This document shows, piece after piece, positions 23,395 to 25,840 of a stretch of DNA of 64,000 nucleotides; positions within the stretch are counted from its first letter, which is position 1; the number at the start of each line of letters is the position of its first letter. Under the pieces are notes generated by a model that saw nothing but the letters and a program-made list of their open reading frames with translations, did not search any database and was not told where the DNA came from. A program made the translations under genes and the position numbers. The stretch is from assembly GCA_000965745.1 (NCBI GenBank), contig CP009479.1, positions 896,001-960,000 on the forward strand, read 5' to 3'. The DNA is from an uncultured archaeon. Lineage in GTDB: Archaea; Thermoplasmatota; Thermoplasmata; Thermoplasmatales; Thermoplasmataceae.

Positions 23395-24480
23395 TCAGGA
23401 AACGGATAATGGCACTATTGTGAAGCTGAGGATGAACATTACAAGCGCAGCTACACCAAGAAGGATATCCCGTGACGGAATGCCTGAATAGTCATCAAGG
23501 GCAGGGGGATGATTGAGGCCCATGAACACGACGAACATGGCAAGGAACCACCACCCGTTGTACCTGAAGCCTATGAGGAAGAGGAAAGCGACAAATATGT
23601 AGTCAACAACTGAAGCCCTTTTCCCCAGAAGCCCCCTGACAACATGCCCGCCGTCAAGCTGTCCCACAGGAATCAGATTCATCGCTGTTGCGAATATGCC
23701 AACCCAAACAGAAAACACCATTGGAAATACCGGTCCCTGAAATTCTGTTGTGAGTCCAAGGAACTGATAGAGCAATGGAAAGTTGATCACGAACGGCATG
23801 TAATTGCCCGTGGCAGGGAAGAAGCCCTGCACGTACTCCGCGACAAACAGGAGTGGAAGTGCTGTCAGGAACCCGGCAATAGGGCCTGCTGCACCGATCT
23901 CCAACATTACTTTCTTGTTTGGAATCGGATCACGCAGGGAAATGAAGGCTCCAAATGTTCCTATCCCCACCGGGAACGGGATGAAAAAGGGGAGGGACGC
24001 TTTCACCTTGTGCCTTCTGGCAACTATATAATGCCCGGTTTCATGCACTCCGAGTATCAGCATGAGTGGGGCCGAAAAGAACACGAACCCGTATATGTAT
24101 TTGAGAGCGCCTCCCCATGCACCGGGCTGGACAAAATTTGCAGCATATATTGACCCCACGTATATGGTTGAAGCCAGAGTTAGGACAAGCATCACGAGAT
24201 TAACGTAATTGCTCCTGTAGGTAGTGGCTGGCCTCCTTGACACCTCTATGAAATTTTCAACGTCCTTGACAAGAAAAGGGACATATCCTTCAGGCACAAG
24301 CTCTGTCCTCAGTTTGTCGAACTCATTTGTAAGATCTGGATTGTCGCTCAGGAAAAAGAAGAATCGGATACTCAGAGGGTTGACATCAGTCTCGTATACA
24401 TTGATGTAGGATCTTACTGTCCTGACCACCTTTTCAAGGTCTTCGCTCTGAATCCTAACAGTCCTCGAGGTATTCTCCAT
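23395..24480 (-). CDS. Site-2 (M50) intramembrane metalloprotease; true start ATG 24480
   Basis: HETGH, GTFGAFI, AGPIAG and NLIPVGQLDGGH; GGTGA RBS just before ATG 24480. The longer ORF start overlaps the ncRNA. Confidence 0.9.
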   Translation of the reverse strand: MENTSRTVRIQSEDLEKVVRTVRSYINVYETDVNPLSIRFFFFLSDNPDLTNEFDKLRTELVPEGYVPFLVKDVENFIEVSRRPATTYRSNYVNLVMLVLTLASTIYVGSIYAANFVQPGAWGGALKYIYGFVFFSAPLMLILGVHETGHYIVARRHKVKASLPFFIPFPVGIGTFGAFISLRDPIPNKKVMLEIGAAGPIAGFLTALPLLFVAEYVQGFFPATGNYMPFVINFPLLYQFLGLTTEFQGPVFPMVFSVWVGIFATAMNLIPVGQLDGGHVVRGLLGKRASVVDYIFVAFLFLIGFRYNGWWFLAMFVVFMGLNHPPALDDYSGIPSRDILLGVAALVMFILSFTIVPLSVS

Positions 24481-24494
24481 AAGGTTCACCGTTA

Positions 24495-24692
24495 AACTGT
24501 TCCCCAGGTTAACGAAGTTATTCACGTTTCGTAACTCTCTGACCCACTGGGGATTTTGTTGCCAGCCGCTGATCGAACCTACATAGCATGAACTTATCAT
24601 ACGCTCAGTCCGAGGCCCATGGCGTGGCAAATTATTGTCTCATGTCGTCATACATGTTCATCAGATCACATGTACTATTTTTTGAGACAACC
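24495..24692 (-). ncRNA. Three-hairpin box H/ACA pseudouridylation guide RNA
   Basis: Three stem-pocket-stem hairpins, each with a GA...UGA K-loop. Each is followed immediately by ATA (24635-24633), ACA (24559-24557) or ACA (24500-24498). TATA box upstream. Pocket 3 is complementary to 23S H69. Confidence 0.8.
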
Positions 24693-24710
24693 TAATAGGT
24701 AATACTCTCT

Positions 24711-24726
24711 CTTAAAGTTTTTATCT
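24711..24726 (-). promoter_or_regulatory. BRE/TATA promoter for the H/ACA RNA
   Basis: Minus strand GATAAAAAC-TTTAAG, with TTTAAG at 24716-24711, about 20-25 nt before hairpin 1. Confidence 0.6.
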
Positions 24727-24856
24727 CAAATGTGTTAAATTAACTGAAATTGCTGAGCTGCCAGTATGAATTATGCATGGTCACTCAGAACATAATATAT
24801 CAACTCTGCTCCATGAACCGCTTCTCTTCCGGCAAAAACGGCAAAAAAAGTGTGGT

Positions 24857-25840
24857 TTAATCTCTCCAGACTTTCCTTACAGAAGCTATTCTGGGAGATT
24901 CCTCGAGGCTCATCCTGGTCCTGTACGTGATCCTGCCCCTCGTGAACAGGATCTCGACTGAACCACCTATGTTCTCATTTGCCATGTATTCGATGAGTTC
25001 CTTCATCCCGTTTATGTTCTTGTCTCCCATTGCAGTAATGACATCACCGGGTTGGAGCCCAGCATAATAGGCCGGGCTGTCCTGGGAGACCCTGGCAACA
25101 AGAACTCCGCTGTCATTGCTCAGGTTGTATGCGCAGGCAACACTGGAGTTGAGCTCCATTCCAGATATTCCCAGCCAGGGCCTGATGACTCTGCCGTTCT
25201 CCAGAATATCATTCATGATCCTCTTCACTGTGTTGACGGGTATTGCGAAACCCACTCCCTGTGCAAACGGGATCATCGCGGTGTTTATTCCTATCACTTT
25301 GCCTGAAAGGTTTGCAAGAGGCCCTCCACTGTTGCCAGGGTTGATCGCTGCATCAGTCTGGATCAGCCCTTCAAAAATGAAGTCCGCCCATGGGAGGGGC
25401 CTTCCCACTGCACTTACAAGCCCAAGCGATACTGTGGGGTCTCCAGGTAGCCCCAGTGCATTTCCTATTGCAAGCGCCATTTGCCCCGGCCTGACCTTGT
25501 CTGAATCGGCGAGATCTGCAACAGGAAGGCCATGCCCCTCGATCCCGACCAAAGCTATATCTGTGGCAGGATCTGTCCCAAGAACCTCTCCAGGCCTGCT
25601 CTCCCCATTTGGAAGTACTACTTCCACATTTTCAGCCCCCTCAAGCACATGGTTATTGGTGACGATGTGCCCCTCTTGGTCAACAATAATGCCGGATGCT
25701 GAACCAATTGAAGGGGACAGACCGTACATGAAGTTGCGCGAAACCCTTGTAGTGTTGATTGTGACAACACTGTTCCTCAATCTCTCCACAGACTTCTCTA
25801 TCTCACTTTGAAATTTCTCCAGCTCGGACATTAGTTTCAC
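24857..25840 (-). CDS. HtrA/DegP-family serine protease with one PDZ domain
   Basis: TNNHV, TDIA, QTDAAINPGNSGGPL, and PDZ motifs WLGI and GDVI. Confidence 0.93.
   Translation of the reverse strand: MKLMSELEKFQSEIEKSVERLRNSVVTINTTRVSRNFMYGLSPSIGSASGIIVDQEGHIVTNNHVLEGAENVEVVLPNGESRPGEVLGTDPATDIALVGIEGHGLPVADLADSDKVRPGQMALAIGNALGLPGDPTVSLGLVSAVGRPLPWADFIFEGLIQTDAAINPGNSGGPLANLSGKVIGINTAMIPFAQGVGFAIPVNTVKRIMNDILENGRVIRPWLGISGMELNSSVACAYNLSNDSGVLVARVSQDSPAYYAGLQPGDVITAMGDKNINGMKELIEYMANENIGGSVEILFTRGRITYRTRMSLEESPRIASVRKVWRD

Follow-up and report, generated by a model that had tools for sequence, protein, structure and literature searches.

In bacteria the pseudouridines at positions 1911, 1915 and 1917 of 23S rRNA helix 69 (H69) are made by RluD, a stand-alone, protein-only synthase. 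In eukaryotes RNA-guided pseudouridylation at the most conserved H69 positions is directed by H/ACA snoRNAs of the yeast snR191 and vertebrate U19 type, which have two hairpins, no K-turn or K-loop, and Nhp2 in place of L7Ae. Archaeal guides to H69 have been described before, in Haloferax and Pyrococcus. In H. volcanii, hairpin SL2 of the sRNA sR-h45 works with Cbf5, Nop10, Gar1 and L7Ae to guide formation of Psi1940 and Psi1942 in H69, the equivalents of positions 1915 and 1917 (PMC7075261), and in P. abyssi an H/ACA sRNA that is active in vitro guides Psi2016 in 23S stem-loop 69 (PMC2377435, which for RNA-guided pseudouridylation at the most conserved H69 positions cites its reference 17). 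No mention of Thermoplasma was found in the H/ACA papers searched by term.

On the minus strand of the window (the whole 64,000-nt stretch of DNA analysed, G000:C1:896001-960000, from a single-contig Thermoplasmataceae genome of 2.23 Mb) the segment 24553-24498 is very probably the 3'-terminal hairpin (hairpin 3) of an archaeal box H/ACA sRNA of ~195 nt with three hairpins, and its sequence predicts the H69 uridine equivalent to E. coli U1915 as the target for pseudouridylation. Compared by target and architecture, hairpin 3 and SL2 are both archaeal H/ACA hairpins carried in multi-hairpin sRNAs, and both are aimed at the 1915-equivalent uridine in the H69 loop sequence UAUG. However, SL2 leaves UAUG unpaired and yields two pseudouridines, whereas hairpin 3 leaves UA only; the spacing to ACA is 17 and 19 nt in SL2 but 13-14 nt in hairpin 3; and SL2 has a K-turn whose replacement by a K-loop was inactive in vivo (PMC7075261), whereas the K-loop of hairpin 3 is natural. 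The geometry of hairpin 3 resembles that of the engineered 'perfect 1940 guide' of the same study. The P. abyssi guide likewise targets H69, at one or other of its two conserved pseudouridines, but it belongs to another order and has no detected sequence relation to hairpin 3 (Rfam models, E<=10), while RluD modifies the same H69 nucleotides as are predicted for hairpin 3 with no guide RNA. A natural comparison is between a two-base pocket with a K-loop here and the atypical four-base pocket with a required K-turn in Haloferax. Hairpin 3 brings no new mechanism, and an H69 guide would be expected by specialists in any archaeon with Cbf5. The locus has ordinary scientific interest and real value for annotation: it supplies a non-coding gene missing from the annotation of Thermoplasmata genomes and trims a spurious 5' extension off a neighbouring M50 protease gene.

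The sRNA region carried no existing annotation. Hairpin 3 is the last of the three hairpins, the other two lying directly upstream in the same layout (Table 1). No Rfam 15 covariance model matches 24300-24900, even at E<=10, and tRNA is the only match of the whole window to Rfam 15 at gathering score. A TTA/TTT-rich motif occupies the alignment column of the TATA-like box in 30/30 homologues, and this box, judged by archaeal TATA-to-start spacing, is likely the promoter of the sRNA. Further upstream, minus-strand T-runs (CUUUUUUUGCCGUUUUUGCC, 24830-24856) lie just past the stop codon of the gene for an HtrA-like serine protease (24857-25840; Trypsin_2 and PDZ domains), and likely form an archaeal terminator between that gene and the sRNA promoter.

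Table 1. Features of the three-hairpin sRNA locus and the adjoining protease gene, in window coordinates.
Feature	Coordinates	Strand	Detail
TATA-like box TTTAAG	24711..24716	-	~24 nt before hairpin 1 stem
Hairpin 1	24633..24690	-	lower stem UGUCUCA/UGAGACA, pocket, upper stem, K-loop GA-N6-GA
Hairpin 1 AUA box	24635-24633	-
Hairpin 2	24557..24628	-	lower stem GCC-AC-GCC/GGC-U-GGC, long upper stem
Hairpin 2 conserved pocket		-	AUGGGCCU / AUCAGC
Hairpin 2 ACA box	24559-24557	-
Hairpin 3 lower stem, 5' strand UCCCCAG	24547..24553	-	pairs with 24507-24501, 7 bp
Hairpin 3 5' guide U-GGGUCA	24540..24546	-	GGGUCA = 24545-24540; preceding U unpaired
Hairpin 3 upper stem, 5' strand GAGAGUUA	24532..24539	-	pairs with 24520-24514; 7 bp; G24537 bulged
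Hairpin 3 K-loop C-GA-AACGU-GA-A	24521..24531	-	putative L7Ae binding site
Hairpin 3 upper stem, 3' strand UAACUUC	24514..24520	-
Hairpin 3 3' guide GUUA-AC	24508..24513	-	GUUA = 24513-24510
Hairpin 3 lower stem, 3' strand CUGGGGA	24501..24507	-
Hairpin 3 ACA box (ANA)	24498..24500	-	putative Cbf5 PUA-domain anchor
M50 (site-2 type) metalloprotease gene	23395..24480	-	Pfam PF02163, 78.3 bits; context, outside guide

The anatomy of hairpin 3 was compared with published rules for H/ACA guides, including a lower stem of 7-9 bp and an ANA box (PMC4652768, PMC2377435, PMC7991803). Its lower stem of 7 bp lies within the published range, the ACA directly 3' of this stem fits the ANA-box rule for archaeal H/ACA motifs, and the K-loop with its tandem G:A pairs fits the K-turn/K-loop rule. 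Archaeal K-turns and K-loops with tandem G:A pairs are described with a 'GA stem' of ~10 layers (PMC4652768); in hairpin 3 the stack that begins at the pocket and ends with the second G:A pair comes to 10 layers (7 Watson-Crick, a C.A and two G:A), plus one bulged G. In archaeal H/ACA RNAs the pocket-closing pair and the ANA box are usually 14-16 nt apart (PMC4652768). In hairpin 3 the distance is 13 nt when the G-C closing pair (G24539-C24514) is formed, one below the usual range, and 14 nt with that pair open, and the same 13/14 spacing is found in all homologues. From the top of the 3' pocket strand to ACA there are 13 nt (24513-24501). A sequence-only reading of the window had picked out the pocket strands GGGTCA and GTTA, the ACA and the 13-nt spacing, all of which were confirmed on the minus strand at the positions given in Table 1.

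The same reading had noted that the 23S rRNA is not encoded in the window, and the sole 23S gene of the genome indeed lies outside it, at G000:C1:355487-358406. Its own H69 reads GGGG-UAAC-UA-UGACCC-UC and contains UAACUNUGACCC, the sequence on which the proposed targeting depended. GUUA of hairpin 3 pairs with U1911-C1914 (UAAC) and GGGUCA with U1917-C1922 (UGACCC), in E. coli numbering. The 4+6 Watson-Crick pairs flank U1915-A1916, left unpaired at the pocket top in the canonical Psi-N geometry. In the numbering of the genome's own 23S this dinucleotide is U1951-A1952, and the uridine selected is U1951, equivalent to E. coli U1915. The pairing of both arms, proposed earlier from an archaeal consensus, therefore holds in the cognate rRNA, and the match supports a guide geometry selecting this uridine; the unpaired dinucleotide had been given as UC and is in fact UA, which leaves the targeting argument unchanged.

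Under the canonical rule (target 5' arm with the 3' guide, target 3' arm with the 5' guide, U-N unpaired) the H69 site is the only all-Watson-Crick match, with a score of 10, across the genome's own 16S and 23S. Other rRNA sites were rejected as targets of hairpin 3, requiring several G-U pairs, as were sites in the whole genome, where matches are at noise level. The H69 12-mer, TAACTNTGACCC, has one further genomic copy only, outside the rRNA genes. Of 151 Thermoplasmata genomes searched, 77 carry the 16-mer GGTAACTATGACCCTC unchanged, and the other 74 may lack an assembled 23S or have a variant. The guide-target pairing comes to 10 bp in total, with a 3' duplex of just 4 bp, close to the minimum accepted for archaeal guides, and such a short pairing could in principle arise by chance, or be left behind in a decayed, inactive H/ACA hairpin that has no current target. 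A score of 10 somewhere in the own 16S and 23S was reached by 30/2000 shuffled pockets and by 37/2000 random 7+6-mers from the window (~1.5-1.9%), and when one bulge or mismatch is tolerated the H69 site is still the top match, with 5/150 shuffles doing as well. Single-sequence folding likewise gives some room to this reading, as hairpin 3 folds weakly but not significantly better than its shuffles (z -1.4); folding energies of this kind were not counted as support. However, the uridine selected belongs to the few rRNA positions that are pseudouridylated universally, which makes chance far less likely than the shuffle figures by themselves suggest.

Conservation argues further against chance or decay. 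By blastn, homologues of the whole three-hairpin region turn up in 34 of the 60 further Thermoplasmataceae genomes searched, and a covariance model of hairpin 3 finds it in 12/12 sampled family genomes, including genera missed by blastn, in 2/3 genomes of a sister family and, as weaker matches (E ~1e-3), in two further Thermoplasmata families. When 43 homologues from the Thermoplasmataceae and the sister family were aligned to the model, 93.3% of the cells in the stems were paired, compared with 42-60% in slid controls, and changes on both sides, i.e. compensatory, were found in 11 of 15 stem pairs, values reached by 0/500 shuffles. These comprise 4/7 pairs of the lower stem and 7/8 of the upper stem, where one homologue has A-U in place of the closing G-C. 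Against this variation GGGTCA and GTTA are invariant in 43/43 sequences, while the flanking bases vary, and the K-loop pattern N-GA-N(4-5)-(U)GA-N is retained in 43/43 with a variable inner loop. The box after hairpin 3 is ANA in 43/43, being AAA in 34 and otherwise including AUA and AGA; the canonical ACA occurs in this genome alone. In relatives with A before GGGUCA the guide gains a pair with U1923, and in some GUUAC(UUC) extends the pairing into G1910-G1907. The two distant families keep AGGGUCA...GUUAC and ACA on a longer upper stem which, by eye, resembles an internal K-turn, so that the guide seems to have survived a change in architecture. A guide that is invariant in at least four families while its stems covary leaves a chance match or a decayed hairpin extremely improbable.

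The genome encodes the protein partners Cbf5 (313.9 bits), Nop10 (61.3 bits) and L7Ae (81.6 bits), all above cut-off, and Gar1 has a weak match in a 79-aa ORF (23.4 bits vs the 29.3 Pfam cut-off). Transcription, RNP assembly and modification are modelled here entirely on the established archaeal H/ACA RNP. In such an assembly L7Ae would bind the K-loop of hairpin 3 and Cbf5-Nop10-Gar1 would dock on the lower stem and ACA box. H69 of the pre-23S rRNA would then thread into the pocket, where the 3' and 5' guides would hold its two arms with U1915-A1916 (own U1951-A1952) unpaired beneath the upper stem, and Cbf5 would isomerise U1915 to pseudouridine. Protein-only enzymes for H69 were rejected, neither a RluD/RluA-type synthase (PF00849, giving just a weak cross-hit on cbf5) nor the follow-on methylase RlmH (PF02590) being found in the genome. 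From these sequence comparisons the universally conserved H69 pseudouridine appears to be made in this lineage by an RNA-guided system and not by a bacterial-type enzyme.

The contrast with Haloferax raises the question of the route by which U1917 is modified here, if modification occurs there at all. The same hairpin might make two pseudouridines sequentially, at the U1915 and U1917 equivalents, as does SL2, which yields Psi1940 and then Psi1942 from one pocket, and modification of both positions extends to all three domains (PMC7075261). Consistent with such a dual role, a limited pattern search of the genome found no separate conserved U1917 guide, and the lack of a detectable RluD-type enzyme points the same way. 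One candidate U1917 guide, at genome positions 200170-200225 (6+6 bp, lower stem, AUA box), was rejected, having no K-loop or upper stem and being unconserved within the genus, and no plausible U1911 guide was found in a pattern search of the genome. However, hairpin 3 uses the CA of GGGUCA to pair with U1917 and G1918, and this CA is invariant in 43/43 homologues; a second modification would require the A-U1917 and C-G1918 pairs to open, leaving 4+4 bp. The 'perfect 1940 guide', which has the typical UN geometry, gave Psi1940 alone in vitro (PMC7075261), and since hairpin 3, by pairing with U1917 and G1918, resembles that guide, a single pseudouridine is predicted, at the 1915 equivalent. We therefore consider modification of both uridines by hairpin 3 unlikely.

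The M50 ATG at 24480 lies just 17 nt past the ACA box, with a GGUGA ribosome-binding site in between (24481-24497), and a T-run terminator was looked for after the ACA box and none was found. Given this lack of a terminator and a start codon so close downstream, processing or read-through must account for the 3' end of the sRNA. The M50 gene starts 4-30 nt past hairpin 3 in 33 of 37 family loci, and most Thermoplasmataceae genera share this sRNA-M50 order; it is not found in one genus or in other families. This sequence arrangement suggests that the sRNA and M50 are co-transcribed and then processed. It is also conceivable, if rather doubtful, that the guide RNA forms an obligatory 5' leader of the M50 mRNA, processed out or occupied by L7Ae/Cbf5, which would couple ribosome modification to protease expression. 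The short distance, the missing terminator and the retained gene order would equally favour a view in which hairpin 3 is chiefly a cis-acting leader of the M50 mRNA, e.g. an L7Ae-bound K-loop controlling translation, and its match to H69 is incidental. Such a view leaves unexplained the two invariant blocks exactly complementary to H69 around U-N and the ANA box with its spacing of 13-14 nt, and retention of the guide in genus g3 and other families that have no adjacent M50 gene speaks against it. A function as leader might also exist alongside the guide role instead of supplanting it. We regard a chiefly cis-acting hairpin as very unlikely, and retain the reading of hairpin 3 as an H69 guide. 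The overlap with coding sequence is only apparent. A mechanical ORF (23395-24630, TTG at 24630, 411 aa) crosses hairpins 2 and 3, but homologues align from residue 1 at the ATG at 24480, giving an M50 protein of 361 aa. Because this longest ORF spans the hairpins, an automatic pipeline could annotate a spurious N-terminal extension and so conceal the sRNA.

Hairpins 1 and 2 were scanned in the same way. No canonical contiguous target for either was found in the own 16S and 23S, and none of their best candidate sites in the whole genome is in or near a tRNA gene; with no convincing canonical rRNA target for these two hairpins, the sRNA is only partly explained. In the homologues hairpin 1 has a covarying lower stem and keeps its 3' pocket GACGAC and 5' UAG. 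UGUCGUC of the own 23S (E. coli 2504-2510) is complementary to the 3' pocket GACGACA, and CUAU (E. coli 2516-2519) to the 5' pocket AUAG. In a bulge-tolerant scan the own 23S U2539/2540 (E. coli U2513/2514) is the top site, a result equalled by 2/150 shuffles, and the geometry is atypical. This makes U2539/2540, in the peptidyl-transferase region, a candidate target of hairpin 1, to be taken as a lead; in relatives from family f6 the first hairpin does not fit this site. In the 23S A-loop, GCCCAU and GCUG(U) lie around U2555-C2556 and offer pairing to the hairpin 2 pocket AUGGGC / (A-U)CAGC, a match that is not significant in the bulge-tolerant scan (31/150 shuffles). A distant family has the rRNA change C2551U together with the guide ACAAC for CAGC, one guide-target co-change that supports the A-loop lead, and the A-loop U (E. 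coli 2555) is a candidate target of hairpin 2, as its best lead. In the K-turn of hairpin 2 the conserved UGA is replaced by UGU or UGC in this genus only.

The rRNA genes themselves offered some minor observations. The 23S and 16S (367220-368689) genes of this genome are single-copy and unlinked, lying ~9 kb apart with the 23S first, and unlinked rRNA genes are typical of Thermoplasmatales. In L065 and L067, two genomes of another Thermoplasmata family, the 23S reads CC (CUUCGCCGUCGG) at the equivalents of E. coli A2503-U2504, usually AU, in a by-eye alignment, an unusual change at a normally conserved peptidyl-transferase site.
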